Counted from the stretch's first letter, positions 1 to 31,574 are shown. The stretch: DNA of 64,000 nt from Candidatus Omnitrophota bacterium (GCA_020429915.1 JAGQKV010000002.1:329552-393551), one strand, 5' to 3'. Made by a program: numbers and translations. The notes: generated by a model from the letters alone, not told the origin.

Positions 1-204
1 ACTTTCCGTGCCGTAGTTAAGGTGATGATCCAATTCGAAGGCCTCGTGAGTCAGCTGTTCCTCGAACAGTGAGTGCATCACCACGGCGGCGATCCCCGCG
101 TCTTCAAGTTTCCTGAAGTTGCCCACATTTTCCGACAACGGAGAAGCGGACGCCACGAGCGGATTTTTTAATATCAGGCCCATATATCGTGTAGTGAAAT
201 CCAT
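1..204 (-). CDS. Dihydroorotate dehydrogenase-like protein, partial; the C-terminal part lies beyond the window start
   Basis: Minus-strand ATG at 204-202 preceded by AAGGA; the N-terminus [51 protein letters not shown] resembles the DHODH / dihydropyrimidine dehydrogenase family. It starts 25 nt after the PFOR stop, same strand. Not in the ORF track because it runs off the window edge. Confidence 0.5.
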
Positions 205-229
205 GATCTGTGTCCTTCTTTCGCTAGAG

Positions 230-3200
230 TTAAACCTCGTTTTCCGGCGGATTACCGGCCGCGGCTATTTCATTGTACGCCTTCAGGCGCCGGTTGACGT
301 CCGCCTGGGCCTCGCGAATGAGCTCCCGGGAGATTTCCGGTTGACTCTTGAGCAGCATTTTGTAGCGGTTTTCTTTGTATGCGTAATCCCGGAAGGAGAT
401 CTTCGGTTCTCCCGAATCCAGGACCAACGGATTTTTGCCTTCGGTTTTGAGCGTCGGGTTGTAACGGAATAACGGCCAATGTCCCGAGAGTACCGCGTCC
501 TTCTGGTTCTGCATGCCCTGGCTCATGTTGATCCCGTGAGCGATGCAGTGACTGTACGCGATAATCAATGAAGGGCCAGGGTAGCGTTCCGCTTCGAGAA
601 AGGCCTTGACGGTGTGTTCGTCTTTGGCTCCGAGCGCGACATTGGCGACATAAACGTACTCGTAGGACATGGCGATGCGCGCCAGGTCCTTTTTAGGCAT
701 CGGTTTCCCGGCCGCGGCAAACTTGGCCACCGCCGCTCTCGGCGTGGATTTGGACATTTGACCGCCCGTGTTTGAATACACCTCCGTATCGAGCACCAGG
801 ATGTTGAGGTCTTCGCCTGAGGCCATCACGTGGTCCAGTCCGCCGAAGCCGATGTCATAGGCCCAACCGTCGCCGCCGACGATCCAGACACTTTTCTTAA
901 CGAGCATATCGGCCAGACTGAGCAGCTGTCTCGCCTCAGGGGAAGCATCGTCGCGAAGCTTCTCTTTGACGGCGGCCACTCGCTGGCGCTGTTCATATAT
1001 GTCGGCCTCCTCCACTTGTTTGGCCAGGAGGAGACCCTCCACGAGATCCGTCCCTAACCGGGACTCGAATCCCCTGAGGAGTTCTCCGGCAAACTCGCGC
1101 TGCTTATTGACGGACAATCGAAATCCGAGACCGAATTCCGCATTGTCTTCGAACAAGGAGTTGGACCAGGCCGGTCCGCGCCCATCGGCATTTTTGGTCC
1201 AGGGAGTCGTCGGCAGGTTGCCGCCGTAAATCGACGAACATCCCGTCGCGTTGGCGATCAAGGCCCGGTCACCGAACAGCTGCGACATGATCTTGATGTA
1301 GGGCGTCTCCCCGCATCCGGCGCAGGCACCGGAAAATTCGAACAAGGGTTCCAGTGCTTGAATCCCGCGAATGGAATTGTGCTTTACCTTGGCGCGGTCG
1401 ATCTCCGGCAGCTTTTGAAAGAGTTCCCAGTTGGCGACTTCCTGTTCGCGCAGCGGTGCCTGAGGTTCCATATTGATGGCTTTCAGACGTGTTTCCGACT
1501 TGTTCTTGACCGGGCAGACTTCCACGCAGATGGCGCAGCCGGTGCAGTCTTCCGGCGCCACCTGAATGGTGAAGTTGTGATCCTTCAGTTCCCGGTCGCG
1601 ACACTGCGTGGTCTTGAATGTATCGGGCGCGCCGTTGAGCGCCGCAGGCTCATAAATCTTGGTCCGGATGACGGAATGCGGACAGACGGCCACACACTTC
1701 CCGCACTGGATGCATATATCCGGATCCCAGACAGGAATTTCCTGGGCGATATTGCGGCGCTCCCATTTCGCGGTCCCCGTCGGATAAGTCCCGTCATCCG
1801 GCAGGCAGCTCACCGGCAGAAGGTCACCCTGACGGGCCATCATCTTGGCGGTCACTTCGCGGACGAATTCAGGCGCCTCGGCAGCGACAGCGGGTTGAAA
1901 CTCCCGGTCGCTGGTGACCTTGGCCGGAACGTCGATCTCAAACAGATTGGCTAGCGTATGATCGACCGCTTCGAAGTTTTTCTTTACGATCTCCTCGCCT
2001 TTTTTCCCGTAGGCCTTTTGGATCTGCTCCTTAATGGCGCCGATCGCCTCGTCCTTGGGCAAGATTCCAGAAATCGCGAAGAAACATGTCTGCATAATAG
2101 TGTTGATCCGGATGCCCATGCCGGTTTCACGGGCGATCCGGTAGGCATCGATGTTGTAGAACTTGAGTTTGCGGTCGATGATGATCTGCTGCACCGGTCG
2201 CGGAAGATGTTCCCACACGGCGTCTTTGGCATACGGGCTGTTCAGCAGGAACACTCCGCCTGTATCAATCTTTTCAAGTACATCGTACTTGTCGAGAAAA
2301 TTGTACTGATGACACCCCACAAAACTCGCCCGGCTGACCAGATACGTGCTGCGGATCGGATCCGGACCGAAACGCAGGTGGGAAATAGTCATCGATCCCG
2401 ATTTTTTGGAATCATAAACGAAATAACCTTGAGCGAAATTGTCGGTGCTTTCCCCGATGATTTTAATGGAATTCTTATTGGCTCCTACGGTCCCGTCAGA
2501 ACCGAGTCCGTAAAAGATTGCGCGCACGCCGCTGGCCCCTTCTATAGTGTAGTCGGGATCATACTCCAGGCTGGTATGTGTCACATCGTCATTGATGCCG
2601 ATGGTGAAGTGATTTTTGGATTTGTCCTTCTTGAGCTCATCAAAAATCGCCTTGATCATGCCCGGCGTGAATTCTTTGGAGGATAGTCCGTAGCGGCCGC
2701 CGATGATCTTGGGCGTGACGGCAAACCGGCCCGGATTCTCGAACACGGCGTTGACTACGTCCAGGTAGAGAGGCTCTCCGGCGCTTCCCGGTTCCTTGGT
2801 ACGGTCGAGCACCGCGATCGCCCGGGTGGAATCCGGCAGACTCGTGAGCAGATCGGTTACGGAAAACGGACGGTAAAGCCGGACTTTCAGGACGCCTACT
2901 TTTTCCCCGGCCGCCGCCAAATGATCGACCGTCTCGTGCGCCGCTTCCGCACCGGACCCCATGATGATGATTACACGCTCGGCGTCCGCCGGTCCGTGAT
3001 AGTCAAACAAACGGTACTGCCGTCCGGTCAGCTTGGCAAAACGGTCCATAGTTTCCTGGACGATGCGCGGAGCTACTTCGTAGTATTTGTTGACCGTTTC
3101 CCTGGCCTGAAAGTAGACGTCTGGATTCTGGGCGGTCCCACGCAGGACCGGGCGGTCGGGTGTCAGACCGCGGCTGCGATGCGCGAACACCCACTCATCG

Positions 3201-3787
3201 TCGATCATTTTACGCACGGTTTCATCATCGATGGTTTCTATCTTGTTAACTTCATGTGATGTTCGAAATCCGTCAAAAAAATGAATGAAGGGAATACGGG
3301 ATTCGAGTGTCGCTGCGTGCGCAATCAGGGCCATGTCGGTGACTTCCTGGAGACTGCCGGACGCGAGCATCGCCATCCCCGTGGCCCGCGCGGCCATCAC
3401 GTCGGAATGATCACCGAAAATCGACAGCGCTTGGGCGGCCAGTGAGCGGGCCGCCACATGGAAGACGGCCGGGGTCAATTCACCCGCGATCTTGTACATA
3501 TTCGGGATCATCAACAGCAACCCCTGAGAAGCCGTAAAGGTCGTCGTCAATGACCCCGTCTGCAGGGCCCCGTGGATCGCACCGGCGGCCCCGCCTTCGG
3601 ACTGCATCTCTTGCACCAGCGGTGTGGTACCCCAGATATTCTTACGGTGCTGCGCGGCCCATTCGTCCGCGAACTCCCCCATGGGTGAGGACGGCGTGAT
3701 CGGATAGATTGCGATCACCTCACTGAGACGGAAGGCTATCCGTGCCGCCGCTTCGTTTCCGTCGATCGTGGCGTATTGTTTGCTCAT
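230..3787 (-). CDS. por: Pyruvate:ferredoxin (flavodoxin) oxidoreductase, single-chain PFOR
   Basis: 1185 aa; N-terminus [46 protein letters not shown] is typical of NifJ/PFOR; two 4Fe-4S ferredoxin motifs ([24 protein letters not shown]); TPP-binding [16 protein letters not shown]. Confidence 0.95.
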
Positions 3788-3805
3788 GTTACCCTCTTTC
3801 CTTAA

Positions 3806-4768
3806 TCAACTGATTTTCCAAAAGTCCTTTAATTTATCCTCAAGCTCGAACAGGCGATGGTCGAACTCATCCACCGCCTGAATCATTGAATCGGTCCGGT
3901 GTTCGCTGAATTTGAGCGGATCACCGTTAACTCCGTCCTTAAAATTATGAACACATTGCGAAAGATACGCGGTGTTGTAACCGCCCTCAAGTGCCGCAAA
4001 CATCTGCGGGAAAGCCAGACCGAGTTCACGGCCGAGATCATAGTAAGTGTCGGCGCTTAACCGCAAATTTAAAAGCGGGTCGGCGTGATGCGCATCGAAA
4101 CCGGCTGAAACGGCCAGGCTGTCCGGTGCAAATTGTTCGGCAATTTGCATAATCAGCTCCATTCCCTTCCAAAACAGATCGTCCCCGCTTTGAGGCGGTA
4201 ACGGAACATTCACGGTAAAACCGCGCCCACGGCCTTCGCCTATTTGGTCCGCCGTTCCGGTAAACGGAAACGCGGGGAATTGATGCAGCGAACAATAGAG
4301 CACCGTATCCCAGCGGTAAAAAATGTCCTCGGTCCCGTCTCCGCAGTGACCGTCAAAATCAAGGATCATCACCCGCTTGCCTTCCCGAACCAAAGCGGCG
4401 GTCGCAATCGCCACATTGTTAAACAGACAAAAACCGCTGGCCCGGGCGATGAACGCGTGATGCCCCGGCGGCCTGACCATGGCAAAACCGTTGGTACGCG
4501 AAGCCTTGACCGTCGCAGCCACGGCGGCCACGGCGACATCAAAGCTGCGGGGACTGACCAGGGTATCACCATCCAGCGGTCCGCCTCCTGTACGGCACGT
4601 CCTGCGGACATCGGCGATATAGTCCCCGGCATGCACAAGTTCCAAATACTCGCTCCCGTCCTCAAGCTCCGACTGCGGGATGCCCTTCAGGAAGTCTAAC
4701 CGTGCGACATTCTCCGGATGGGCTCCCGTATCATGACGTCGAAAAATATCGTTGTAAATGAACTCCAT
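3806..4768 (-). CDS. Histone deacetylase-family amidohydrolase (AcuC / acetoin-utilisation deacetylase-like)
   Basis: 320 aa; HDAC-family motifs: HPENVARL near the N-terminus, RPPGHHA, FDGHCGDGTEDIF, LEGGY. 18-nt gap to por downstream, 6-nt gap to the upstream gene. Confidence 0.85.
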   Translation of the reverse strand: MEFIYNDIFRRHDTGAHPENVARLDFLKGIPQSELEDGSEYLELVHAGDYIADVRRTCRTGGGPLDGDTLVSPRSFDVAVAAVAATVKASRTNGFAMVRPPGHHAFIARASGFCLFNNVAIATAALVREGKRVMILDFDGHCGDGTEDIFYRWDTVLYCSLHQFPAFPFTGTADQIGEGRGRGFTVNVPLPPQSGDDLFWKGMELIMQIAEQFAPDSLAVSAGFDAHHADPLLNLRLSADTYYDLGRELGLAFPQMFAALEGGYNTAYLSQCVHNFKDGVNGDPLKFSEHRTDSMIQAVDEFDHRLFELEDKLKDFWKIS

Positions 4769-4774
4769 AGCCGA

Positions 4775-6679
4775 TTAAGTCGCGTTATGCGTCTTCTGTC
4801 CGGGAAGGATCTCTTCGTTTTCCAGGTCAAGCTTGACATAGTAGCCGTCCACTTCGGAACTCGGCTTAACGGTAAAGTTATGATTCTTGAAAATTTTGAG
4901 CATCACGCCATTGGTTTGTGCGACATAGGCATAGAGTTGCCTGATACCGTGCTCGCGGGCCGCCTGAATCAGCATATCGCACAAAAAGTTTCCGATCCCG
5001 ATGCCCTGGAAGTCTTCCTTGACCACGATGCCGATTTCCGCCTCCGCCGACTCATCGTGACGGATGTAGCGTCCGATGCAGACCATTCTGCCGATCGGCA
5101 TCCAGTGATCGTAACCGGCGATGGCCATATCTTTATTGTAGTCGACACTCACTCGTGCGCCGGCCTCCATAAACGACAGAGACTCCACATTGGCCAGGTA
5201 GCGTTGATAAATCGTCTGCGGCCGATGACTGTAGAAGAAGTCCTGGATAGCCTTTTGGTCGAACGGCCGCAGCGGACGGAAGTAAATGTCTTTGTCCTGA
5301 AATTTAACGTGATGCGGAATCAGCTCTTTGACCTTGCTGTCGTCATCCTTGAGAATTTTTTGCTCCGGATAGATATAGTGTTTTTGCTTCAGGTAATCGA
5401 GCAGTTCCTCCCGAAAATCAGGATGGGCGATTTGGGCCAACGCCAGGGCCCGTTCCCGCACGTTTTTTCCATGCAAATAAGCAGTGCCGTACTCCGTGAC
5501 CACATAGTGCACATCCGCGCGTGAGGTAACCACCCCGGCTCCCGGTGACAGCTGCGGGACGATGCGTGACAGCGTCCCGTTCTTGGCAGTGGACGGCAGG
5601 GCAATAAAAGAGCGCCCCATCCGGGACCGCTTTGCCCCGCGGACAAAGTCAACCTGACCGCCGAAACCGCTGTAAAAGTTCGCTCCCAAGCTGTCCGCGC
5701 ACACCTGTCCGGTCAGGTCGATTTGAATCGCAGAATTGACCGAGACCATAGCGTTATTTTGAGCGATCACAAACGGATCGTTGGTGTACTCTGACGGGTA
5801 AAACTGAAAATCTTTATTGCGGTGGATTAAGTCGAAGATTCGCCTTGTCCCCAGGACAAAGCTGACAATGGATCGACCGCGGTTGATTCCCTTTTTGTTA
5901 TTCGTAATGTTCCCGTTGCGGTATAACTCGATGATCCCGTCCGAGACCATTTCGGAGTGGATCCCCAGATCGTTTTTCTCTTTAAGGTTGAGCAGCATCG
6001 CGTCGGGAATATTTCCGATCCCCAGCTGGAGCGTGTCCCCATCCTGAATGTACTTGGCCAGATGTTTGCCGATCCGCATCGACACATCATCCGGTTCGCC
6101 CTGCGGAAATTCGATGAGAGCCTCGTCAGCCTCGACCAGATAATCGATGCATTGCAGCGGGATCTTGGACACACCGTATGTTTCGGGCATATTACGATTA
6201 ACCTGGGCAATGACCAAATCCGCGCTGGCGATGGCCGCCGGCAGGATATCCACACTGACCCCCAGCGACACATAATTCCGGTTGTTCGGCGGAGAAACTT
6301 GAATGAGGACCGCGCTGAGCGGCATCTGTCCCGTTTTAAACAAATTGGGCACCTCGGAAAGGAAAATCGGCATATAATCCGCGTGCCCCTCGGCCACGGA
6401 CTGACGAATGTTGTGACCGATAAAAAAAGCGTTATGCCGAAAGTTCTTGGCATAACGCACGTCCGCGTATGGCGCGATTCCGACCGTAAGAATATGGACG
6501 ACTTCATTGTCGCGGAAACAATCGGCGTTTTGTATGAGGGCCCGTACCAGATGTTGCGGTTCGGCGCATCCCGATCCGATGAGGATGCGTCCGCCCTTAC
6601 GGATTTGACGAACGGCTTTGGCCGCGTCGACTAATCGTGTATTCTTTTTGGGATAAACATACGGTTCGTAAAGTAACAT
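4775..6679 (-). CDS. Bifunctional acetyl-CoA hydrolase/transferase family domain fused to a C-terminal GNAT N-acetyltransferase domain
   Basis: 634 aa; the first ~430 aa resemble acetyl-CoA hydrolase/transferase (Cat1/Ach1/ScpC-like) proteins; the last ~180 aa carry GNAT motif A (FQGIGIGNFLCDMLIQAAREHG); AGGAAA SD before the ATG at 6679. Confidence 0.8.
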   Translation of the reverse strand: MLLYEPYVYPKKNTRLVDAAKAVRQIRKGGRILIGSGCAEPQHLVRALIQNADCFRDNEVVHILTVGIAPYADVRYAKNFRHNAFFIGHNIRQSVAEGHADYMPIFLSEVPNLFKTGQMPLSAVLIQVSPPNNRNYVSLGVSVDILPAAIASADLVIAQVNRNMPETYGVSKIPLQCIDYLVEADEALIEFPQGEPDDVSMRIGKHLAKYIQDGDTLQLGIGNIPDAMLLNLKEKNDLGIHSEMVSDGIIELYRNGNITNNKKGINRGRSIVSFVLGTRRIFDLIHRNKDFQFYPSEYTNDPFVIAQNNAMVSVNSAIQIDLTGQVCADSLGANFYSGFGGQVDFVRGAKRSRMGRSFIALPSTAKNGTLSRIVPQLSPGAGVVTSRADVHYVVTEYGTAYLHGKNVRERALALAQIAHPDFREELLDYLKQKHYIYPEQKILKDDDSKVKELIPHHVKFQDKDIYFRPLRPFDQKAIQDFFYSHRPQTIYQRYLANVESLSFMEAGARVSVDYNKDMAIAGYDHWMPIGRMVCIGRYIRHDESAEAEIGIVVKEDFQGIGIGNFLCDMLIQAAREHGIRQLYAYVAQTNGVMLKIFKNHNFTVKPSSEVDGYYVKLDLENEEILPGQKTHNAT

Positions 6680-6694
6680 GTCTTTTCCTGTGGT

Positions 6695-7741
6695 TCAGCA
6701 TATTCGCGGCAATTGATCGGCGCTGAGCATATCGATGATCCGATCGTGACCGAGAGGATTTTTCAGTGTGACTAAATGATCCGGATCGTCCGCGCAATGC
6801 CCGATGACCGTAGCCGCGCTTCCGAGCGCAGTGGCCCGAAGAGCAGTGACCGCGGATGCCGCCTCCGCATTCGGAACAAAGGCGATGAAACGGCCTTCAT
6901 TGGCCACATAGAGCGGGTCCATTCCCAAAATCTCACAAGCTGCCCTGACGTCTTCACGCACCGGAATGGCGTCTTCACGCAGACGGATTCCCATATGGGC
7001 GGCTTCGGCAATTTCGTTGCAGGCGCTGGCCAGGCCGCCGCGCGTTAAATCGCGCAGACACCGGATTGTGATCCCGGCTTGTAAGAGCGCCCGAACACAT
7101 GCCCAGACCGGCGCCGAGTCCGAAGTAATATCACTTTCGAATGACAATCCTTCGCGGACCGCCATGATCGCCATGCCGTGCCGTCCGATATCCCCGCTGA
7201 GGATCACTGCATCTCCGGGACGGGGCGCGGCCGGACTGATGTGCTGATCGTGCTCGATCAAGCCGATGCCCGCGGTGTTGATATAAATGCCGTCGCCTTT
7301 CCCTTTATCCACGACCTTGGTGTCTCCGGTGACCACACTCACACCGGTCGCCGCTGCAGCCGCGGCGATCGATTCGGTAACGACTTCGAGATCCCTTATC
7401 GGAAAACCTTCCTCCAGGATAAGCCCCAAACTCAGATGCAAGGGGCGCGCGCCTGCCATGCACAAATCGTTGACCGTGCCGTGCACGGCCAGCTGTCCGA
7501 TATCGCCCCCCGGAAAAAAGATCGGATTGATCACATAGGAATCCGTGGTGAAAGCGATTTTCTGACCGTTCACAGGGATCACCGCCGCATCATGCAACGG
7601 TCCATCACGCTCGGGAGACAGACGCGGGATCAAGCGCTCGCGGATCAGCTGATTCATCAGCCGCCCGCCCCCGCCATGTCCCAGCAAAATTCGGTCCTGA
7701 TCGTGCAAAGGCCGTGGACAACTTATCTGAAATTCACTCAT
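6695..7741 (-). CDS. hypE: Hydrogenase maturation protein HypE (carbamoyl dehydratase)
   Basis: 348 aa; AIR-synthase-like fold motifs; the C-terminus ends with the characteristic PRIC. Confidence 0.95.
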   Translation of the reverse strand: MSEFQISCPRPLHDQDRILLGHGGGGRLMNQLIRERLIPRLSPERDGPLHDAAVIPVNGQKIAFTTDSYVINPIFFPGGDIGQLAVHGTVNDLCMAGARPLHLSLGLILEEGFPIRDLEVVTESIAAAAAATGVSVVTGDTKVVDKGKGDGIYINTAGIGLIEHDQHISPAAPRPGDAVILSGDIGRHGMAIMAVREGLSFESDITSDSAPVWACVRALLQAGITIRCLRDLTRGGLASACNEIAEAAHMGIRLREDAIPVREDVRAACEILGMDPLYVANEGRFIAFVPNAEAASAVTALRATALGSAATVIGHCADDPDHLVTLKNPLGHDRIIDMLSADQLPRIC

Positions 7742-7745
7742 CGAA

Positions 7746-8858
7746 TTAATTCTTGGCTGCCGGGGTCACGGACTTCCTTCCCCGGTAACGGTAATAGGCG
7801 GAGCATGCGCCCTCTGACGAAACCATGGTCGCCCCGAGCGGATGGTCGGGCGTGCAGGTCTTGCCAAAGGCCGGGCACTCCGGTGGTTTTTTCAGCCCCT
7901 GGAGGATTTCACCGCTGATACATTCGGGACTCTCCTCGGTCACGATGTCGCCCGTTTGGAATTTCGTCTCCGCGTCAAACGCGCGGAACGCCTCTCGCAA
8001 AGCCAAACCGCTGGCCGGAATTTCCCCCACACCGCGCCATTTACGCGGCGTCACGTTAAATACTTCGTTGATAATGCGCCGGGCATGCTCGTTACCCTCC
8101 CGGCGGACCGATCGTGCATATTGATTTTCCACTTCGGCGCGGCCCTCCTCAAGCTGACGGACGCACATGCAGATCCCCTGCAGGATGTCCAGCGGCTCAA
8201 AACCGGTCACTACGATCGGGACGCGGTATTTGTCGGCTAGCGGAAAATACTCTTCGAATCCCATCACCGTGCACACGTGTCCGGCCGCCAAGAATCCCTG
8301 GACCCGGTTGCGTTCGGAGGAAAGTATCGCCTCCATGGCCGGTGGAACCAGTACATGCGAAACGAGAATCGAGAAATTGGTGAGCCCCTGTTGTCGGGCC
8401 TGATAAACGGCCATGGCATTGGCCGGAGCCGTTGTTTCAAAGCCGACGGCAAAGAAGACAACCTCCTTGTCCGGATGACGCGCGGCCAGCCCGACCGCGT
8501 CCAGCGGGGAATACAGTACGCGCACATCGGCCCCTTCGGCCTTGACCGTAAACAAATCCTGACGGGAACCCGGCACACGCAACATATCCCCGAAGGAACA
8601 AAAAATAACATCCCGCCGCGCGGCAATGGCCAGCGCCCGGTCAATCAGCTCCAAGGGCGTCACGCAAACCGGACAACCCGGCCCGTGGATTAATTCGATA
8701 TCATCCGGCAACAATCCGTCGATACCGAACTTCACAATCGCGTGGGTTTGCCCCCCGCACACCTCCATCAGTGTATGCGGCCGCGTGGTGATGCGGTGTA
8801 TTTCGGCTGAGAGTTGTCGCGCCAATTCCGGATCGCGATACTCATCGATGTACTTCAT
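7746..8858 (-). CDS. hypD: Hydrogenase maturation protein HypD
   Basis: 370 aa; [17 protein letters not shown]-terminus, [22 protein letters not shown] motifs. Confidence 0.95.
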
Positions 8859-9112
8859 TCGTCGCTCTCCTCAATTTCGTCCAACTCCCCCATCTCCTTC
8901 AAATATGCGAAGACTGTTTGCGCTTCCTGTTCATCGACTTTACTGATAGCGAAACCGACGTGTACGATGACGTACTCGCCGACACACGCGTCCGGCACGT
9001 AAGCCAAACAGACCTCTTTCACAACGCCGCCGAAATTCACCCGACCCCTGACTTGCAAGGGATCTTCATTAGTGACAATTTCCTCAATCTTACCGGGTAT
9101 GGCTAAACACAT
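8855..9112 (-). CDS. hypC: Hydrogenase maturation chaperone HypC
   Basis: 85 aa; [13 protein letters not shown]-terminus with conserved Cys2; 4-nt overlap with hypD. Confidence 0.9.
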
Positions 9113-9113
9113 G

Positions 9114-11408
9114 TCATATTTCCTGATGGGACGTTAACGGCAAAGTCGCCTTGGCCAACCGGCGCGAACCGGCTACCACGCATTGCCCCAGCGCGATGCC
9201 GCCGTCATTAGGCGGCACCAACTGCGGCCAATACACCTGATAATGCTGCTCCTGTAAACGATCAATGAGCCGTTCGGTGAGATACTTATTTTGAAAGCAC
9301 CCTCCGCTGAGGACCACGCGCTCCTCTCCAACCCGGTGGGCGACCCCGACGGCCATCTCCACCAGCGTGTTCTGAAAAGCCGTGGCGATGACTCCGGGCG
9401 CGCGCCCGGCGCGGAGATCTTCGATCATGGCACTTAACATGGGTCGCCAATCCACTTCACCATGCCCGATTCGGAACGGATAATGCTCCGGATGCGGGTG
9501 GTCATAGCCGGCAAACTCCAACCGTTGGGCGGCCTGGCCTTCATAATGATTTACGGTCGCCAGCCCGGTCAACGCGGACACAGCGTCAAAGAGGCGTCCG
9601 ACGCTGGAGGTTAAGGGAGCCGCGGTGCCGTTTTCCAGCAGGCGTAACATGTTCTTGAGGGCCGGACGGGTAAATGTCTGCAAGACGGACAAATCGTCAT
9701 AGGCTGCAAAATCTCTGCGGGCATAAGCCCACAACAGCCCCAATGCGGTGCGGCGTGGCTCGCGGACCGCCTGCTCGCCTCCCGGGAGCGGAAAAGTCCG
9801 CAGGTGATACACTCGGTGGTATCCTGTCTCGTCGCAGGTCATGAACTCCCCTCCCCACACCGTTCCGTCATCTCCCCAGCCGGTTCCGTCCCAGCAGATG
9901 CCGAGCACCCGTCCGCTGATTTTGTTTTCAGCCATGCAGGCCGCGATATGGGCATGGTGATGCTGAACGGGCTCGGGATCCGCCGACATGGTATGCGCCA
10001 GACGCGTGGTGAGATAATCGGGATGTTTATCGCATGCCAAAGGCGGTTCGGTCATACCATAGATACGTTGAAAATCATAAAGGACCGATTTATAAGTCTG
10101 CCAAGTCAGCGGATTCTCAAGGTCGCCGATATGTTGGCTGACAAACACATTGCGATCCTTCGCTACCGCGATCGTCGACTTGAGCTGACCGCCGCATCCG
10201 ACCATATCCGCGAGCGGATGGTCGACAGTGACCGGCAACGGCGCGTAGCCGCGCGCCCGGCGCAGGACCATGGGACGGCCGTGGATCATACGAACGATGG
10301 AGTCGTCGGCATGGCGGACAATCGGCCGGTCATGCACCAGCAAACAGTCACTGACATGGCTCAGACGTTCGAGCGCATCCATTTCGTCGATACAGATCGG
10401 TTCTTCCGCGATATTGGCACTGGTGGCGATCAGCGGCCGTCCCACACGCCGCATGATGAGATGATGCAACGGCGTGTATGGCAAAATGATTCCCCAAAAC
10501 GGATTCGCCGGCGCGACATTATCGGCCAGCAACGCCCCTTCCTTCTTCGGCAACAACACGATCGGGGCCTCTGGCGACATCAACAGATGACGTTCCTTTT
10601 GGGTGACGTAACTCAAGCGCTCAGCCCAGTCGATATCGGGGCACATCACGGCAAGCGGCTTTTGATCGTGCCCCTTCCGCTGGCGCAGACGCGCGACCGC
10701 ATCACTGTTGGCCGCATCGGCCATGAGGTGAAACCCGCTCAATCCCTTCACCATAACGATCTGCCCGGCAAAAAGACGGGCAACGGCTTCCTCAAGGGCC
10801 CGGGTACCTTCACAAAGAACTTCGCCGCAACAATTCCACAATGCCAGCTGCGGACCGCAGTTCGGACAGGCGTTGGGCTGCGCATGAAACCGGCGATTGG
10901 TCGGCTCCTCATACTCGGATTGACACTCCGGACACATCGTAAATCCACTCATCGATGTGTGCGGACGGTCATACGGCAGGCCGTAGATGATGCTATAGCG
11001 CGGTCCACAGTGCGTGCAATTGGTAAACGGGTACTCATAGCGGCGGTTGGAGGCATCCAACATCTCACTCAGACAATAGGGACACGTGGCCACGTCGGGC
11101 AGGATCAGGGCTGACGGTTCTCCGCCATCCGGGCTGGCACGGATCTCGAACCCCTCATACCCGAGCGGATCCAGGTAGGAATATTGCAGACTTTGAATGT
11201 ATGCATGCGGCGGCACGGCTGTCTGTAGCTGCCGCAGGAACCGTTCCAGCTGTTCGTCCGTCCCTTCGATTTCGATGGTTACTCCGGCAGAAGTGTTTTG
11301 GACATACCCGTTGAGATTCAGGGCACACGCATGGCGATAAACATAGGGGCGGAAACCCACCCCCTGCACCAGCCCCAAAATTTTTATACCGATCCGTTTA
11401 GTAGCCAT
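9114..11408 (-). CDS. hypF: [NiFe]-hydrogenase maturation carbamoyltransferase HypF
   Basis: Acylphosphatase domain (RIGIKILGLVQGVGFRPYV), two CxxC-x18-CxxC zinc fingers, YrdC and Kae1-like domains. The ORF track starts at a GTG at 11489; the ATG at 11408 (MATKRIGIK) is preferred because GGGAAATCGAGG precedes it and the acylphosphatase domain begins there. Confidence 0.93.
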   Translation of the reverse strand: MATKRIGIKILGLVQGVGFRPYVYRHACALNLNGYVQNTSAGVTIEIEGTDEQLERFLRQLQTAVPPHAYIQSLQYSYLDPLGYEGFEIRASPDGGEPSALILPDVATCPYCLSEMLDASNRRYEYPFTNCTHCGPRYSIIYGLPYDRPHTSMSGFTMCPECQSEYEEPTNRRFHAQPNACPNCGPQLALWNCCGEVLCEGTRALEEAVARLFAGQIVMVKGLSGFHLMADAANSDAVARLRQRKGHDQKPLAVMCPDIDWAERLSYVTQKERHLLMSPEAPIVLLPKKEGALLADNVAPANPFWGIILPYTPLHHLIMRRVGRPLIATSANIAEEPICIDEMDALERLSHVSDCLLVHDRPIVRHADDSIVRMIHGRPMVLRRARGYAPLPVTVDHPLADMVGCGGQLKSTIAVAKDRNVFVSQHIGDLENPLTWQTYKSVLYDFQRIYGMTEPPLACDKHPDYLTTRLAHTMSADPEPVQHHHAHIAACMAENKISGRVLGICWDGTGWGDDGTVWGGEFMTCDETGYHRVYHLRTFPLPGGEQAVREPRRTALGLLWAYARRDFAAYDDLSVLQTFTRPALKNMLRLLENGTAAPLTSSVGRLFDAVSALTGLATVNHYEGQAAQRLEFAGYDHPHPEHYPFRIGHGEVDWRPMLSAMIEDLRAGRAPGVIATAFQNTLVEMAVGVAHRVGEERVVLSGGCFQNKYLTERLIDRLQEQHYQVYWPQLVPPNDGGIALGQCVVAGSRRLAKATLPLTSHQEI

Positions 11409-11433
11409 GTCGACCTCGATTTCCCGGTCATCT

Positions 11434-11616
11434 TCACGGGGCTTTTCGCTTGTGTCTGTCCGCAGGATGCGGTTGATTCTTTCCGGCACACCAAATCAGT
11501 CCGAACAGGAGAAAACTGCCGGCTGTCAGTACGGTCAGATTCAAGATGGTCCGGTCGTCCAGGTGGATGCCTCCGCAGTGTGCCAGGTAGGTAACGGTTA
11601 AATGGTAGGCGTTCAT
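11434..11616 (-). CDS. Small hydrophobic hypothetical protein (60 aa) upstream of hypF
   Basis: ATG ORF MNAYHLTVTYLAHCGGIHLDDRTILNLTVLTAGSFLLFGLIWCAGKNQ... ends 25 nt before the hypF ATG and lies downstream of a strong promoter; no homology recognised; weak SD. Confidence 0.2.
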   Translation of the reverse strand: MNAYHLTVTYLAHCGGIHLDDRTILNLTVLTAGSFLLFGLIWCAGKNQPHPADRHKRKAP

Positions 11617-11682
11617 GATTTTTTCCGTTTCTTAAGAAGGTTTTTCGGTTCTCCGGGGGGCATTTCATGCGTCCGCCCGAAT

Positions 11683-11698
11683 CGTGAATTATTTCACA
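11683..11698. promoter_or_regulatory. CRP/FNR-family-like palindrome TGTGA-N6-TCACG immediately downstream of the hyp promoter -10
   Basis: Minus strand reads aTGTGAaataatTCACGa (9/10 match to the CRP-type TGTGA-N6-TCACA consensus). Confidence 0.35.
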
Positions 11699-11710
11699 TA
11701 TCTACATGCT

Positions 11711-11738
11711 ATTATACATTAATAGATGTATAAGTCAA
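11711..11738 (-). promoter_or_regulatory. Candidate strong sigma70 promoter TTGACT-N16-TATAAT for the hyp (and downstream) operon
   Basis: Minus strand reads TTGACTtatacatctattaatgTATAAT in the AT-rich 150-nt intergenic region upstream of the small ORF/hypF; an imperfect inverted repeat ACATGCTATTA/TAATAGATGT overlaps the spacer. Confidence 0.45.
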
Positions 11739-11773
11739 TATGGCCGGGTGTTTTATCGACGTGATTAGCGGGC

Positions 11774-12337
11774 CTACAGTTGTTGCTCTGTGATGATATT
11801 TCCGGATTTGATGTCAAAGGTGTATTCGACGTTATCAATCGTTTTCAGCTTGAACAGGTAACGAAAGGTATCGAATTCGGGATCCCGCCGGCTCCAGTAG
11901 TAGTGGCTCATCGATGGAAGAATTTGCGCTGGATCCTTCACCAGCTGTTTGGTGCTGTAGGATCGGATCAGCTGGCCGCGGTGGTAAAAGGCGATCGCGA
12001 GATGATTTTCGGACAGTTCATGTCCGCGCGGCCAATTGCCGTAGCGCACCAAATACTGACCGTCATGCGTCAAATAGACCCGGTTGGAATACCAGCCGGA
12101 GGTCTGCCACAGGATTTCATCCCCCGCCCCCGAAAGGACTTGGTAGCATATGCCGCGCCCCTTTTCACGGTCGAGCGGACTATCCGGTATCATTTTGAAG
12201 TAAAAATGCCCGTTGGCCGAGGCCCGCACAAATGGGACCGGCAAAAACTCATCATCCGCTCCCGAGCGGCCACCCGTCAAAAGGATTGTGGATATAATCA
12301 GCATTTGAACAATGATCATGATCAGAAGATTTCTCAT
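11774..12337 (-). CDS. Hypothetical secreted protein (187 aa)
   Basis: The start chosen is the ATG at 12337 (MRNLLIMIIVQMLIISTILL signal peptide), preceded by an AGGAAGG SD and overlapping the upstream stop (ATGA). No recognisable domain. Confidence 0.5.
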   Translation of the reverse strand: MRNLLIMIIVQMLIISTILLTGGRSGADDEFLPVPFVRASANGHFYFKMIPDSPLDREKGRGICYQVLSGAGDEILWQTSGWYSNRVYLTHDGQYLVRYGNWPRGHELSENHLAIAFYHRGQLIRSYSTKQLVKDPAQILPSMSHYYWSRRDPEFDTFRYLFKLKTIDNVEYTFDIKSGNIITEQQL

Positions 12338-12663
12338 ACGTCCTTCCTTTTGGTACGGATTTCTTCGCACTTCCATTGAGTGTGTTGACATTCGGGACAA
12401 CGGCGGCGGCGAAAATGTTCAAACTCCATACTCCGGCAGTAATCTCGAAGGAAAAGCGAAGCAATGATCACGACGGCCACAAATAGGACCGCGACCGCGG
12501 ATATTCGCAGCGGCTGGGGCCACAAGCGACAGAGTGACCAGCCGTAATAGCTGATAAACATTGCGGGAAACAAGGCAAAGAACGGCCATACCCAGAATTT
12601 TTGGCTTAACAGTCCGGGTTCCTCCATCTTGAAACCGCATTTTTGACAGATCAAAAGCAACAT
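12334..12663 (-). CDS. Small membrane protein with split zinc-ribbon (CQKC ... CPEC-x5-C) flanking two TM helices
   Basis: Start at the internal ATG 12663 (MLLLICQKCGF...); the longer track ORF would overlap the receiver gene. Two hydrophobic segments; translationally coupled to the downstream secreted protein. Confidence 0.45.
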   Translation of the reverse strand: MLLLICQKCGFKMEEPGLLSQKFWVWPFFALFPAMFISYYGWSLCRLWPQPLRISAVAVLFVAVVIIASLFLRDYCRSMEFEHFRRRRCPECQHTQWKCEEIRTKRKDV

Positions 12664-12757
12664 GAAGTTTGTTCGCTCCGGAGTGATCCGGGTACTTTTC
12701 GGGATTATATCCTCGCCGGCGGGTAAAAGCAAGAAGCCATCCAGGAGATTCCGCAAA

Positions 12758-13180
12758 CTAACGGTTGTCGCTGGGCAAGTTGACGAGGGTATAGAGTTTG
12801 TCCAACAGCTCGGTGTTATCAAAGGGTTTTGCGAGAAACTGGTCGATTCCGATCGCCGGCAGCTTGCCGGCTTCCACATCGGATATCATACCGGATATGG
12901 CAAATATCTTGACGCCTTTCCCCACGTCTTCCGTGCGGATCCGCCGGCACAACTCATATCCATCCAGACCCGGCATACGGATATCCATGACAATCACATC
13001 CGGTTGCCATTCCTTGAATCTCATCATGGCCATGAAACCGTCACAGGCCGTTCGAATCTCAAAATTGTCGGTAAGTGCCAGCAGTCGGGTAATGGCGTTA
13101 ACCATTTCCTTGTCATCATCGACGATAAGGACACGATGCATTTTGCTATTTGAATGCGGAAAAGGTGACTCTTGATTCAT
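12758..13180 (-). CDS. Standalone response-regulator receiver protein (CheY-like, no output domain)
   Basis: VLIVDDDKEM..., phospho-acceptor in VIVMDIRMPGLDG; start at ATG 13180 with a GGAG SD; paralogous to the receiver domain at 34172-34777. Confidence 0.85.
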   Translation of the reverse strand: MNQESPFPHSNSKMHRVLIVDDDKEMVNAITRLLALTDNFEIRTACDGFMAMMRFKEWQPDVIVMDIRMPGLDGYELCRRIRTEDVGKGVKIFAISGMISDVEAGKLPAIGIDQFLAKPFDNTELLDKLYTLVNLPSDNR

Positions 13181-13235
13181 GATTTCTCCCCACCGGAATA
13201 ACCGGCGAACAAACATTCACTCCCGGTATACCCTG

Positions 13236-13264
13236 AATATAAACCCCTCCCACAACAGTGTCAA
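13236..13264 (-). promoter_or_regulatory. Candidate sigma70 promoter TTGACA-N17-TATATT upstream of the standalone receiver gene
   Basis: Minus strand reads TTGACActgttgtgggaggggttTATATT, ~55 nt upstream of the ATG at 13180. Confidence 0.45.
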
Positions 13265-13387
13265 TACATACGGAAAGCGGGAGCACTTTATCTTTCAGGG
13301 GCCACAGGCAATAACCTTCCGCGACCGGGCCGGGACATTATTTAGGACTGTTCTCCCGGGACTTCTCATAAACACGTGCACCTGAAC

Positions 13388-16300
13388 TTACTCTTCCGCG
13401 CTGACAGAACCCTGTTGGTCCACCAGGTAGTAATCACCTTCATAATAAACCCGCCACACCGGATAATAGAAACTCCCCTCCGTATGGATCAGCTCCATTT
13501 CAGCGCCGTCTCGCATCTCGTGGATCATCCCCCGACGAACACGCCGGTCCGAGTCGGGATAGAGGTGCTTAGCGATTAAGCGCAAGGCCTGACGCTTACC
13601 GACGGGCATGTAGCTCATAGGATCCTTGACCCAGGAGACTTCCTTAAAGGCGCCGCTTTCAGCGTCGATTAAGGCGATGATGACGGTTCGCTGACGCATT
13701 TCCCGACGCATCCGGCGGCGCTCTTGACGCTGAGTCCGGTCAACCCGCTGACCTTCCTCACGCGTCAACTCGTCTCCGGATTCATTCAGCATACGCCCCT
13801 TGCGGAATCCACTGCGTAACTCCTGAACATTGTCCGCATCGACCGGCAGTTCAAACGGAATCAGATAGTAATCTCCGCGGAATCCGTCGACGAATATCGG
13901 TTTGCGCGGTATGGTCTGAACAAACAGCGCGGCAAACTCATCGTCGAACGGGACCAACTGCTCCTGCAGCCCCGTTATTGCCGCCTCAATTAATGCGAAG
14001 GCATCTTCATCAAGATGGTCCCGTACATACACATTTTTTTCCGAACCATCCTCCATTTCTACGGTCTGAAGCTGCAGGAAATTGCGCACGTGCTTTTTCA
14101 GACGCGGCACGCTGGCCACAATCGTTACCTGGCCGTTGTCATCTTGCGGTGGTTCCACTAGGGCCACGTAATGGTTGTACAACGGATCGTCCGGATTAAT
14201 TTCGGTCAGCGGCCAATAGTACATCGCAGTGAATTGATCCGCGGTGACATATGTGTCCTGACCGAGCCCCTGCGGATGCGGATCATTGATCCAGAAGCCG
14301 CAGATTCCAAAATCGGCGTTGCGGTAAGGATCGACCGTGGTTTGAATTCCTTTAATAATGACCCAATAGTCATAATTTCCGTACAAGGGAACGGCTCCCG
14401 GTATATGGACCGGATACCCGTCGACGCCGTGACCGTCGGGATTATCGCCTCCCCCTCCGGCGGGATAGGCCAGCCATTCGGCTATATCACGTAGCGCGTC
14501 CTCCAGGATAAGCCTGGCCTTTAGTCCGAAATTATAGTGAAACGGATTATATGGAGGATCAAGGTTCTGGATGGTCTGCCACAGGCCCCAGCCGTCCAGG
14601 CGCGCCAGTTCCTGATTGACAGCATAATTCATCGGCTGTCCGTACTCATATAACAGGGTCTGCATATTCATTAGCGGATCCTCCAGTTCGGGAGGCCCAT
14701 CCGGATCATCAAATCGGTTCCACCATATATATTGCAGGATCATCTTTAACACGGCCGGCCCGCTGAATTGCCTGACCGAATCGGCACCATTATCCAGGCT
14801 CTGGTGATACGGGAATTTCTCCACGTTCAATGTGAAGCCTCCCTCCACGACATAAATGGTGATAGTTTCCTGCTCGCTCAGTTGACCGTCCGTAATGGTG
14901 AAAGTCACGTCGTATTCTCCCGCGTCGCCCTTTTGCGTCTGCCAAGTGAATTTCGTATTGCCGGAGTCAAACACAGCCCCTTCAGGCAATACGTTCGCGC
15001 TGAAGGTCAGGGAATCCTCGTCCGGATCAGCGCCGGAAACTTCAAACATCAGCATCTCGCCCTCCTTCACTGTACGATCACCGATCGGGTCCAGGGCCGG
15101 CGGTGAATTGCCTGCCATCATCATGACCGTAACCGTAATCTCTTCGAAATCTGACTCGCTGCCGTCCGAGACGGAAACCGTCAGCAGATATGTCCCTGCG
15201 TCGCCTGTTTGCGGGGCGAGTATCAATGTGCTGCCGGAAAATGTCATCCAAGGCTGCCCGCCTGTCACGTTGAATGTCAGGTTATCTCCATCCGGATCAG
15301 TCGCCGTGAAGTTCAATGTTCGCGATTCTCCCTCCGCCAACATTTGATTGCCGACCGGATCGAGTTCCGGCGCCATATTCATGGGCAACGGAGTGACGAT
15401 GATGTCGAAGGTTTCCGTGTCGGTCAGATCGCCGTCACTCACATTTATGGAGACCGGATATGTGCCCGAGTCTCCAATCTGAGGAGTCAAGGTCAGCGTG
15501 GTCCCGTCAAAACTCATCCAACTTTCCGCACCGTTGAACATGAGGGTCAGACTGTCCCCGTCCAAATCACTGGCCGTAAAGGTGACATTAAGGGTCGCTC
15601 CCTCCTGGAGCGTTTGATCGGCTATCGGGTTCAGATCCGGTGCACGATTGGCTTGGGTAACCGTGATGGTAACAGTTTCCTGGTCCGTCCCCGTGTTACC
15701 GTCAGCGGCGGTGAAAGTCACCTGATAAGTTCCGGCGTCATTGTTGCCCGGAGTGCCCATAAAGGTCGTTCCGTCAAAATTCATCCAGGATTGAAGCGCC
15801 GACGTGGTCACAGTCACGGGATCTCCGTCAAGGTCGCTGGCTGATATCATAAAGCTGAGCATAGCATTTTCCGCGACCGATTTGTTACCGATCGTGGCCA
15901 GGACCGGATCGCGATTGACATTCGCCACGGTAATCTGCACGACCTCTGTGGCCGTATCCGTACCGTCGAAGATGGAAAACGTAACGTCAAAAACACCGGC
16001 GTCATTGAAGTCCGGCGTCGCGGTGAAAGTCGTGCCGACAAAGGACATGAATCCGGCCAACGGGGCCGCAGCGAATGTCAGACTGTCCCCGTCCGCATCG
16101 GAACCGGATACGTCGAAACTGAACGTGGCTCCTTCCATGGTCATTCGGTTACCGATGGGATTCAAGACCGGTGAGGTATTAGCGGTTGTTTGTACCGTAA
16201 CGGTTCCGTTGGTAATATTGTCTACGGGTGTGTTTCCTGACGCATCACTTCCGAAGTCCAGTCGTGTCAGGTTTATGGCAGATGTTCCCGGGGCCAGTGC

Positions 16301-20460: not shown

Positions 20461-20810
20461 AACGGCCACCGACAAAATTAAACGCGCCAATATGGTCAGA
20501 TACACAAAATGCGTCTAAATCGACCGAGCGAAGATTGAAGGAATTAGCGGGGAAACATATTGGTCAGATATGGCTAAATCCGATCAATTCCTGTGTTTAA
20601 TTAGGGAAAACAGGATATTTACACGATATACCATAACCCGCGGCATGTCAAGCCGCCTATTTAGACTCTGAACGACACACTTTATGTCCGGGTTTGTCAG
20701 GGACTGTCCTGGATCATCCTGTATAGCTTAAACCCGCCTTGTAGGAAAACCGGCATATCCATGGGCGGTCAGCGATGAGATAATCCGTCCCGGGGCTCTC
20801 TTTCCGGCCT

Positions 20811-21344
20811 TTAGGGGTACATTTCAATCACTTCATCCCCGATCCGAAAAATTACTTTATCCTCGAAAATATCACTCAGTATAGCGCCCTTGATTTCATC
20901 GCCCAACGAAACGAAAAGCGTCTCCCGATTGATCAAGTCCTCCACCACGGCCTTGGGATTTTCGTCCCGGATGATCCCTACGAGACGCACACTCTGGGTA
21001 AATTCCATAACGGATTTCGCGCCTTCGAAATCGTCCGGTGGTTGCTCGGGCACCTCGCTTTGCTTCTCCCAGGGGGCTTCGAACAAATCCCGTTTGGTAA
21101 GATCCGTCAGGTAAGCTGCGAGTGGCTGTGCGCTTTTCAGCGTAGGATTGACCGGCTTCCCGGAGCGGGCCGGCACGCTGACGTCAATCGGCTCTCCTTG
21201 ACTCTCTCCCAAGGCGCCGCGGTACAGCTGTGCGGCATACAGCAAGGCGGCGCACAACCCCGCCAACAGCACACAATTAAGCCCCCGGAGCATCAGCATG
21301 CCCACGTTGCCGGCCTTGGATTGGAAAAGATGTGAATACAGCAC
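20811..21344 (-). CDS. GspC / PilP-like T2SS inner-membrane component
   Basis: 177 aa; N-terminal TM helix and a beta-rich C-terminal segment (VRLVGIIRD...ETLFVSLGDEIKGAILSDIFEDKVIFRIGDEVIEM) as in the GspC HR / PilP domain; its position between gspM-like and gspD supports this. Confidence 0.5.
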   Translation of the reverse strand: MLYSHLFQSKAGNVGMLMLRGLNCVLLAGLCAALLYAAQLYRGALGESQGEPIDVSVPARSGKPVNPTLKSAQPLAAYLTDLTKRDLFEAPWEKQSEVPEQPPDDFEGAKSVMEFTQSVRLVGIIRDENPKAVVEDLINRETLFVSLGDEIKGAILSDIFEDKVIFRIGDEVIEMYP

Positions 21345-21361
21345 ACGTCCCTTTCTGATAA

Positions 21362-21889: not shown

Positions 21890-21891
21890 GA

Positions 21892-23331: not shown

Positions 23332-23344
23332 ATCCTTGAGCCCG

Positions 23345-26104: not shown

Positions 26105-26138
26105 AACATCCTCATCCCCGCCTCGCTGCCAGATTTAT

Positions 26139-26573: not shown

Positions 26574-26587
26574 ACTTTGTCCTCCTA

Positions 26588-27823: not shown

Positions 27824-27830
27824 AGCCGTT

Positions 27831-31447: not shown

Positions 31448-31574
31448 GATTTAACTCCCATGTATAATCGTTACGGAATCGTCGCCATTACGTGTTTGAC
31501 AGACGACGGATCCCTATTCTACAGTTGATATCCCCAAAAAACAACCGTGACGCCCCGGGCCGCCCCCCCCCTGA

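Follow-up and report, generated by a model that had tools for sequence, protein, structure and literature searches.

A CoA-transferase–GNAT fusion protein and a neighbouring Zn-dependent deacetylase as a putative acetylation switch in Candidatus Omnitrophota

Two adjacent genes at positions 3,806 to 6,679 of a 64,000-nucleotide (nt) stretch of DNA from Candidatus Omnitrophota bacterium (in the following, the window) encode a CoA-transferase–GNAT fusion protein of 634 amino acids (aa) and a 320 aa Zn-dependent deacetylase of the HDAC family. Probably, both proteins act as writer and eraser in the reversible lysine acetylation of central-metabolism enzymes, with the transferase domain as a sensor. 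Judged from domains, residues and gene neighbourhoods, the module appears to be a switch on acetyl-CoA metabolism. The strongest computational argument that the two genes of the window cooperate is provided by a family of verrucomicrobial proteins, in which predicted writer and eraser form one polypeptide.

The fusion protein belongs to an apparently large and unstudied family that is widespread among hundreds of species. Nearly all of its 120 best database matches (48-88% identity) share the CoA-transferase–GNAT architecture, and databases list the family under generic names only ('GNAT family N-acetyltransferase', 'acyl-CoA hydrolase/GNAT'). The identical fusion protein is encoded on 23 public metagenome contigs examined, where the neighbour genes are likewise the same, and the deacetylase is a 100% match to MCA9392979.1 (Candidatus Omnitrophota). 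A scan of one genome per species yielded at least 598 confirmed relatives. From these, 80 distant loci (41-50% identity) were kept, on which all counts out of 80 are based; residue conservation was determined in the 72 full-length fusion proteins that they encode. The 80 loci span over 20 phyla of Bacteria and Archaea, among them Planctomycetota, Verrucomicrobiota, Myxococcota, Desulfobacterota, Chloroflexota and Acidobacteriota. Cultured Gammaproteobacteria with the fusion are Colwellia, Cognaticolwellia, Rheinheimera, Alteromonas and Aestuariibacter. Archaeal carriers comprise Thermoplasmata, Methanolliviera, Thorarchaeota and Promethearchaeota; one Thorarchaeota metagenome-assembled genome (MAG) has two tandem fusion genes (L054:5899-7863, 7934-9826) beside genes for an AMP-forming acetyl-CoA synthetase (Acs) and an MFS transporter. 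In a reading made from the sequence alone, the fusion had been called uncharacterised. This agrees with the full-text literature searched, in which neither the CoA-transferase–GNAT architecture nor the triple fusion reported below was found; subscription journals are scarcely covered there, so that an earlier report is possible. The architecture is also absent from a survey of classical deacylases (PMC11532494) and from a review that divides bacterial lysine acetyltransferases into types I-V, none of them linked to a CoA-transferase (PMC8556138).

Domains and active sites

The sequence-only reading had proposed a GNAT fused to an acetyl-CoA hydrolase/CoA-transferase domain of about 430 aa. Pfam searches bear this out: The fusion protein contains AcetylCoA_hydro (residues 15-189, E=1e-25), AcetylCoA_hyd_C (residues 277-429, E=9e-66) and Acetyltransf_1 (PF00583; residues 540-601, 30.5 bits at a cut-off of 20.7). 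In the PDB, the N-terminal domain matches 4-hydroxybutyrate CoA-transferases over residues 13-433 with E-values from 7e-129 to 4e-102 (9vag with E=7e-129, 3eh7, 3gk7). It is 41-44% identical to these solved enzymes and 36% identical to the putative butyryl-CoA transferase RipA. An AlphaFold2 model of the fusion protein has a mean pLDDT of 91.4 and a pTM of 0.89, the latter of which indicates that the transferase domain is packed in a fixed manner against the GNAT domain. When compared by Foldseek, the model superimposes on 3gk7 and 2oas with TM-scores of 0.92-0.96 (normalised to target length) and a root-mean-square deviation (rmsd) of 1.8-2.1 Å. No PDB entry found by Foldseek spans both domains. 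Glu243 and the GGQVDF motif are present; in family-I CoA-transferases, these are the catalytic glutamate, on which the CoA thioester is formed, and the active-site loop, respectively. Glu243 is invariant in 110/110 sequences of alignment A2 and in 72/72 fusion proteins from the distant loci; G340 and D344 are likewise found in 72/72. With its two-lobed fold and its catalytic motifs, the N-terminal domain is, by sequence, a bona fide member of the family-I CoA-transferases. It scores 273 bits with TIGR03948 (butyryl-CoA:acetate CoA-transferase) at a cut-off of 675 and is therefore not an equivalog of this enzyme.

The C-terminal domain shows GNAT motifs in profile searches, and the AlphaFold2 model has the beta-alpha topology of GNATs at residues 457-618. 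Its best PDB matches, aligned over the whole domain, are chains of an 886-aa Pat (9it0/9isq, E=5e-14), followed by the GNAT domain of Streptomyces PatA (SlPatA; 4nxy, 6e-8) and mycobacterial Pat (4oll, 4ava; 2e-7). Small-molecule GNATs in the PDB match with 7e-6 or weaker. Similarly, the Pat model of NCBIfam is hit with E=1.6e-14 compared to 1e-5 for RimI, and ArsN is a weak match, too. Motif A reads Q558-G-I-G561-I-G563, and N590 is also present. Glu548 corresponds in the alignment to Pat Glu809 (9it0), the residue put forward as general base of SePat (PMC3195501). At the position of Glu548, 67 of the 72 fusion proteins have Glu and four have Asp, and Asn590 is found in all 72. By these sequence features, the domain is a member of the Pat-type GNAT superfamily with intact catalytic features, and it would be expected to act on proteins rather than on small molecules.

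The partner protein matches Hist_deacetyl (PF00850) with E=6e-69, as expected for the HDAC-family deacetylase that had been read from the sequence alone. The catalytic and zinc-binding set is present: the H103-H104 dyad, the ligands D139, H141 and D225, and Tyr264. Among solved structures, those of HDAC6 catalytic domains, of bacterial HDAH/PA3774 and of a 'lysine deacylase' of 307 aa (5zmp) come closest to it; no paper was found for PDB entry 5ZMP. The 60 PDB matches listed comprise enzymes of class II (HDAC6, HDAC4/7, HDA1/Clr3, HDA15, HDAC10), HDAH/deacylase-type enzymes and acetylpolyamine amidohydrolases, and none of class I. Because its closest solved relatives are of the class II and HDAH types, the deacetylase of the window is class II-like and not AcuC/class I-like. 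The acetylpolyamine amidohydrolases belong to the weaker matches (E about 1e-33 to 1e-36), and bacterial polyamine deacetylases cluster apart and have an extended L2 loop (PMC11532494). The 320 aa protein is thus predicted to be a classical Zn deacetylase, and the ranking of the PDB matches points to a protein rather than a polyamine substrate.

Pairing and fusion of writer and eraser

Linkage of both genes was investigated at the 80 distant loci by tblastn with the deacetylase of the window and by clustering of all neighbouring open reading frames (ORFs). An HDAC-family gene is located within about 6 kilobases (kb) of the fusion gene at 31 loci. In 19 of these 31 cases, it is the immediate neighbour on the same strand (17 downstream, 2 upstream), and several of the downstream HDAC genes overlap the stop codon of the fusion gene. 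In 8 more cases, the HDAC gene is found just past an intervening gene for an ADP-forming acyl-CoA synthetase (ACD). This concentration at the adjacent position serves as an internal control against chance. There are few HDAC genes per genome, and well under 1% of random 12-kb stretches would be estimated, not measured, to contain one. Among eight closer relatives of the fusion (54-74% identity), the pair is adjacent in three (L004, L086, L091). The two outcomes by which the sequence-only reading would have fallen, a C-terminal domain lacking GNAT motifs and a pair that is not kept together in related genomes, did not occur. The neighbouring deacetylases fall into at least four sequence groups with intact catalytic residues, and the six key residues are invariant in 29 neighbour HDACs. 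A group of 378 aa is class I-like, with HDAC1, HDAC2, HDAC8 and Rpd3 as best matches, while the group of the window and a gammaproteobacterial group are class II-like. This means that the place beside the fusion gene was taken by two deacetylase lineages. One relative with 59% identity, located on a 5.4-Mb contig, has an alpha/beta-hydrolase gene (L005:9854-10888) that overlaps the stop codon of the fusion gene by 4 nt at the usual position of the HDAC gene; its product may be an alternative eraser or unrelated.

A search with the GNAT part alone against 1.84 billion representative proteins yielded P0220, a protein of 955 aa that contains AcetylCoA_hydro, AcetylCoA_hyd_C, GNAT and Hist_deacetyl domains. 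It is encoded by a single ORF (L092:2122-4989) on the 18.8-kb contig L092, and a Lys-rich linker precedes its HDAC domain. A homology search with P0220 uncovered at least 79 distinct clusters (P0277-P0354 among them), whose proteins of 900-961 aa share these four Pfam domains. All named carriers are Verrucomicrobiota, except for one entry from an isopod assembly, where it is flagged as contamination. Cultured carriers are Rubritalea spongiae, R. tangerina, R. marina, R. squalenifaciens DSM 18772, Coraliomargarita sp. W4R53 and Haloferula sargassicola. An explanation by which the fusion gene and the HDAC gene of the window serve unrelated processes and are adjacent by accident could refer to the five of eight closer relatives without an adjacent HDAC gene and to surrounding genes that vary among the loci. 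It is very improbable in view of the adjacent pairs with two HDAC classes in 19/80 distant genomes and of the immediate same-strand position in 19 of the 31 HDAC-linked loci, and the triple fusions effectively refute it; an artefact of assembly or gene calling is unlikely given the complete genomes of cultured Rubritalea and Coraliomargarita.

The residues of 119 verrucomicrobial members, 79 triple fusions and 40 related double fusions, were inspected. In 119/119, the position of Glu243 is occupied by Gly, and GGQ is turned into G-A/S-x. The base Glu of the GNAT (119/119), motif A, Asn590 and, where a deacetylase is present, its six catalytic residues are invariant. Since Glu is replaced by Gly, the verrucomicrobial transferase domain should be unable to form glutamyl-CoA and would serve a different purpose, for instance as a ligand-binding, regulatory or scaffold domain. 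The loss of the transferase Glu alongside GNAT and HDAC residues that never vary suggests that acetylation and deacetylation are the constant function of the family. A parallel is found in Pat: Its synthetase-like N-terminal domain lacks the catalytic His but still binds acetyl-CoA, is needed for activity and drives tetramerisation and positive cooperativity (PMC3195501; PMC8556138). The sequence-only reading had left it open whether the transferase domain supplies acetyl-CoA, senses it or is regulated by it. The verrucomicrobial Glu loss, together with the analogy to Pat, favours an acyl-CoA sensing module as family-wide role over the other two options.

Genomic context

Enzymes of the acetyl-CoA node are recurrent neighbours of the fusion gene. 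An ACD of about 700 aa is encoded at 31/80 loci, at about 27 of them directly upstream on the same strand and often overlapping by 4-8 nt. It comprises CoA_binding_2, Succ_CoA_lig, Ligase_CoA_2 and ATP-grasp_5 domains, has kept the SHTG histidine and aligns end to end with the N-terminal domain of Pat (E=5e-99). Of the solved structures, that of an ADP-forming 4-hydroxybutyrate-CoA ligase is the best match (E=1e-157), and the ACDs upstream of the fusion (L071:3881-5986 and 30 other loci) are closest to the thaumarchaeal type of this ligase. An ACD gene followed by a CoA-transferase–GNAT gene resembles a 'split Pat' and may, to judge from sequence, bear on the origin of type I Pat. Acs, which carries the PKTRSGKIMRR lysine motif acetylated by Pat/AcuA enzymes, is encoded at 12/80 loci. 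Three of the 80 loci (L071, L075, L078) have the gene order HDAC-AcuB-ACD-fusion with a full-length AcuB homologue of 221 aa, which can be aligned from end to end with AcuB of Geobacillus and Bacillus (E=3e-24). AcuB is an energy-charge sensor and an inhibitor of AcuC (PMC13121692). At least one of HDAC, ACD, Acs and the AcuB homologue is encoded within 6 kb at 49/80 loci. Response-regulator genes, which occur at 9/80 loci, overlap the 3' end of the fusion gene in the Desulfobacterota loci L067, L071 and L078 (about 7844-8700), and the one at L071:7844-8695 also has an Hpt domain.

In the Omnitrophota-like clade, the context consists of pyruvate:ferredoxin oxidoreductase (PFOR) and of structural or maturation genes for [NiFe]-hydrogenase (window, L004, L086, L088). 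The fusion gene lies beside [NiFe]-hydrogenase genes in the window, at L004:15283-17899, L086:9455-13875 and L088:1-5954 and, at L049 and L015, in a Methanolliviera archaeon with HypE, HypD and HypF as neighbours and an Eisenbacteria MAG with HypF. This adjacency may tie the acetylation module to fermentative H2 metabolism or may just reflect a shared operon context. PFOR was considered as a conserved partner throughout the family and rejected, since the arrangement is repeated only in L063. As an acetylation target in the window, it is at most a tentative candidate, suggested by adjacency.

All genes from 230 to 11489 in the window are located on the minus strand (Table 1). The sequence was read at the three junctions. 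The ACT TAA end of the fusion gene is followed by TCGGCT (6 nt) and the ATG of the HDAC gene. Between the hypE stop codon and the ATG of the fusion gene are 15 nt with a ribosome-binding-like AGGAAA, and between the HDAC stop codon and the ATG of PFOR are 18 nt with GGAAAGAGGG. Thus, the arrangement described from the sequence alone, two genes 6 nt apart and placed between hyp genes and PFOR with gaps of 20 nt or less, holds, and the domain matches of the genes concerned are much too strong to be due to chance. The promoter-like site at 11738-11711 is the sole strong one on the minus strand near the cluster and is a possible start of a hypFCDE-fusion-HDAC-PFOR transcript; on sequence grounds, co-transcription of the fusion and HDAC genes with the hyp genes and PFOR is plausible. 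An Rfam scan of window positions 1-14000 found no RNA element. Plus-strand ORFs that overlap both genes (e.g. 4718-5524, 5957-6634) were dismissed as high-G+C by-products because the minus-strand products have strong full-length homologues.

Table 1. Position of genes, domains and residues of the putative acetylation module and its surroundings in the window.
Feature	Position	Strand	Evidence
CoA-transferase–GNAT fusion gene (proposed writer)	4775..6679	-	ORF and translation, Pfam, NCBIfam
Family-I CoA-transferase domain, residues 13-433, 4-hydroxybutyrate/butyryl-CoA:acetate transferase type	5381..6643	-	
Codon of Glu243, catalytic-glutamate position, motif GIHSEM	5951..5953	-	Codon checked
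GGQVDF active-site loop, residues 340-345	5645..5662	-	Sequence checked
Pat-type GNAT domain, residues 465-606	4862..5287	-	PDB and NCBIfam Pat matches
Codon of Glu548, predicted GNAT general base	5036..5038	-	Aligned with Pat Glu809
Zn-dependent deacetylase gene (proposed eraser)	3806..4768	-	PF00850
PFOR gene (candidate target)	230..3787	-	TIGR02176, 1866 bits at a cut-off of 911
hypF-hypC-hypD-hypE	6695..11489	-	Pfam and NCBIfam; hypE matches TIGR02124
Sigma-70-like promoter match TTGACT-16-TATAAT upstream of hypF, 11/12 positions	11711..11738	-	Consensus match

The start of hypE (6695-7741, minus strand) is ambiguous: The longest ORF has 348 aa compared to 330 aa in the public call with its start further downstream (L001:6993-7985), which leaves the 15-nt gap to the fusion gene unchanged. 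Left of the window, downstream of PFOR (L001:14476-16215), a DHO_dh-family gene and a gene for a Rex-type redox-sensing repressor (Put_DNA-bind_N and CoA_binding) are found, after which come hypA and hypB (L001:16225-17270). The PFOR/DHO_dh/Rex/hypA/hypB block may be under NADH/NAD control. Further genes of the window are also on the minus strand. At 13388-17977, a public gene call gives a protein of 1529 aa, in which Cohesin, He_PIG and Big_9 domains are repeated; it is probably a large protein of the surface or adhesin type. A type II secretion/type IV pilus-like cluster (secretin, PilM/PilN fusion, GspK-like, GspF-like, GspE/MshE ATPase) occupies 18241-29546. The region 29813-38702 encodes an ATP-dependent phosphoenolpyruvate carboxykinase, a GH65 glycoside phosphorylase and a glycogen/starch phosphorylase (carbohydrate metabolism/gluconeogenesis).

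Proposed mechanism, alternatives and known systems

In the mechanism proposed here, the Pat-type GNAT would move acetyl groups from acetyl-CoA onto lysines of target proteins. The CoA-transferase domain would occupy the place of the acyl-CoA-synthetase-like domain of Pat, bind acyl-CoA and, in the clade of the window, probably still react with it through Glu243. Through this domain, the state of the acyl-CoA/carboxylate pool could set the output of the acetyltransferase, as with the N-terminal domain of Pat, and the class II-like Zn deacetylase would take the acetyl mark off. The targets are probably to be sought in the acetyl-CoA/acetate node of fermentative metabolism because the module adjoins enzymes that make or consume acetyl-CoA (ACD and Acs; in the window, PFOR and hydrogenase maturation).

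Several observations weigh against a dedicated writer/eraser pair with a sensor domain. The two genes are not adjacent in five of the eight closer relatives (L005, L087, L088, L089, L090), and 49 of the 80 distant loci have no HDAC gene in their flanks, so that the pairing is frequent but not obligatory. The canonical Pat/AcuA target is missing from the 64-kb window, where no homologue of Acs, ACD, AcuB or an MFS protein was found, and PFOR is adjacent to the fusion gene at only one other locus, L063. Furthermore, identity to the window is higher in the transferase domain (52%) than in the GNAT (30%) and the linker (15%), and the active site of the transferase is strictly kept in the clade of the window (72/72, 110/110). 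Such strict conservation would be needless in a pure sensor and suggests that, in this clade, the transferase domain retains real transferase chemistry besides its role in acetylation.

This chemistry is central to an alternative in which the fusion protein is mainly a CoA-transferase that serves the fermentative metabolism of acetate or short-chain acids and is self-regulated. Here, the GNAT would acetylate its own transferase domain or a translationally coupled ACD, which the HDAC would undo, so that the module were a local throttle and not a general switch. The preserved active site, the ACD gene directly upstream and often overlapping, the fixed packing of both domains in the model and the PFOR/hydrogenase setting of pyruvate fermentation are in line with it. 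However, members without the catalytic Glu still keep GNAT and HDAC, Acs and AcuB neighbours suggest targets in trans of the Pat/Acu type, and the window itself has no ACD. We consider this alternative unlikely.

Rated about as low, and a shade lower still, is the idea that, in the clade of the window, the CoA-transferase generates the donor: It would make acyl-CoA for the fused GNAT from acetyl-CoA and a free short-chain acid such as butyrate, 4-hydroxybutyrate, propionate or lactate, and lysines would be acylated according to the organic-acid pool, with the HDAC as eraser. There is a precedent in E. coli, where YdiF supplies lactyl-CoA to YiaC, both unfused (PMC9636275). In addition, the transferase is the best-conserved part of the fusion with invariant Glu243 and GGQxDF, it resembles solved 4-hydroxybutyrate CoA-transferases (41-44% identity, rmsd about 2 Å), and the neighbouring ACDs are nearest to 4-hydroxybutyrate-CoA ligase. 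By contrast, the 119 Glu-less verrucomicrobial members have kept GNAT and HDAC, and hence donor generation is not the family-wide reason for the fusion. A broader conception is more doubtful yet: CoA-transferase–GNAT proteins could constitute an unrecognised, widespread class of prokaryotic lysine acyltransferases in bacteria, methanogen-related archaea and Asgard archaea, whose intact transferase either makes the donor in situ or reports the acyl-CoA/carboxylate ratio via glutamyl-CoA. Acylation across the proteome would then follow the pool of fermentation acids, and a dedicated HDAC, welded to the writer in Verrucomicrobiota, would erase the marks.

It is quite improbable that the module operates a small-molecule cycle, in which no protein is modified but a polyamine, an amino acid or a similar amine is acetylated by the GNAT, with the HDAC-family enzyme as acetylpolyamine/amide amidohydrolase. 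Many GNATs use small molecules, weak RimI and ArsN matches were obtained from NCBIfam, and the HDAC family includes the acetylpolyamine amidohydrolases seen among the weaker PDB matches. But the strongest GNAT matches, aligned over the whole domain, are Pat-type protein acetyltransferases, and for the HDAC, matches to HDAC6, HDAH and a lysine deacylase rank first. Moreover, class I (HDAC1/2/8-like) enzymes substitute beside the fusion in other genomes, and its neighbours are Acs, ACD and AcuB and not polyamine genes.

The module was compared with the closest known systems. With the type I enzyme Pat/PatZ (Pka) of Salmonella enterica and E. coli, the fusion protein shares the same type of C-terminal GNAT, in which base Glu and motif A can be aligned, and a large N-terminal domain derived from an acyl-CoA-handling enzyme; in the verrucomicrobial members, this domain lacks its catalytic residue like that of Pat. 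However, the N-terminal domain of Pat is NDP-forming acyl-CoA-synthetase-like, whereas that of the fusion is a family-I CoA-transferase with the catalytic Glu kept in the clade of the window. Pfam finds neither Succ_CoA_lig nor ATP-grasp_5, which characterise the N-terminal domain of type I/II Pat, in the fusion protein. An active ADP-forming synthetase is often encoded by a separate upstream gene at the fusion loci. The eraser of Pat is the NAD-dependent sirtuin CobB, that of the fusion would be the Zn-dependent HDAC-type enzyme encoded next door.

In this latter respect, the module resembles AcuA/AcuC, where a writer and a Zn-dependent HDAC-type eraser are encoded side by side and linked to enzymes of acetate/acetyl-CoA metabolism. 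The resemblance extends to the AcuB homologue of L071, L075 and L078 and to Acs in other related clusters. By contrast, AcuA consists of a GNAT alone and belongs to another subfamily, and AcuC is class I-like compared to the class II-like HDAC of the window. No AcuA chain was found among the PDB matches of the fusion GNAT at E<=0.01 and no AcuA model among its NCBIfam matches, and acuB and acsA are missing from the 64 kb. Of the AcuA/AcuC parallel drawn in the sequence-only reading, the functional part stands, based on pairing, on the Acs/ACD/AcuB context and on the triple fusions; orthology does not, owing to the Pat-type GNAT and the class II-like HDAC. By analogy, the pair of the window would work like Pat/CobB and AcuA/AcuC and is a member of neither.

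Other relatives share single properties. Mycobacterial Pat (cNMP-binding domain and GNAT) and the type III GNATs (ACT-GNAT, NADP-binding MxKat) also have an N-terminal ligand domain fused to a Pat-type GNAT and are controlled by metabolites, but their ligand domains are small sensors of cAMP, amino acids or NADP and not a 430-residue acyl-CoA enzyme fold. AbfT (3gk7), Shewanella 2oas, Yersinia RipA and butyryl-CoA:acetate CoA-transferase resemble the transferase domain in fold (TM-score 0.90-0.96, target-normalised), with 36-44% identity, the catalytic Glu and GGQxDF. In contrast to the fusion protein, these are stand-alone enzymes of about 430-450 aa without an acetyltransferase domain. In the lactylation system YdiF/YiaC/CobB of E. 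coli, a CoA-transferase and a GNAT cooperate via a transferase-made donor (PMC9636275). The genes concerned are separate and unlinked, the proteins belong to other subfamilies, and the donor is lactyl-CoA, whereas acetyl-CoA is assumed for the fusion.

If the writer/eraser reading is true, there would be a further major class of writers, with a novel link between protein acetylation and acyl-CoA chemistry, and many orphan bacterial HDAC-type enzymes would gain a cognate writer. The writer-eraser fusions from cultured Rubritalea, Coraliomargarita and Haloferula would make the system directly testable. Intact and Glu-less clades provide a natural experiment on an enzyme domain that turns into a metabolite sensor, as has been proposed for Pat. 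The PFOR/hydrogenase context corresponds to the branch of fermentation that leads from pyruvate to acetyl-CoA and reduced ferredoxin and on to H2. For Omnitrophota and other uncultured anaerobes, this would indicate a post-translational control of the branch from pyruvate via acetyl-CoA to acetate and H2.

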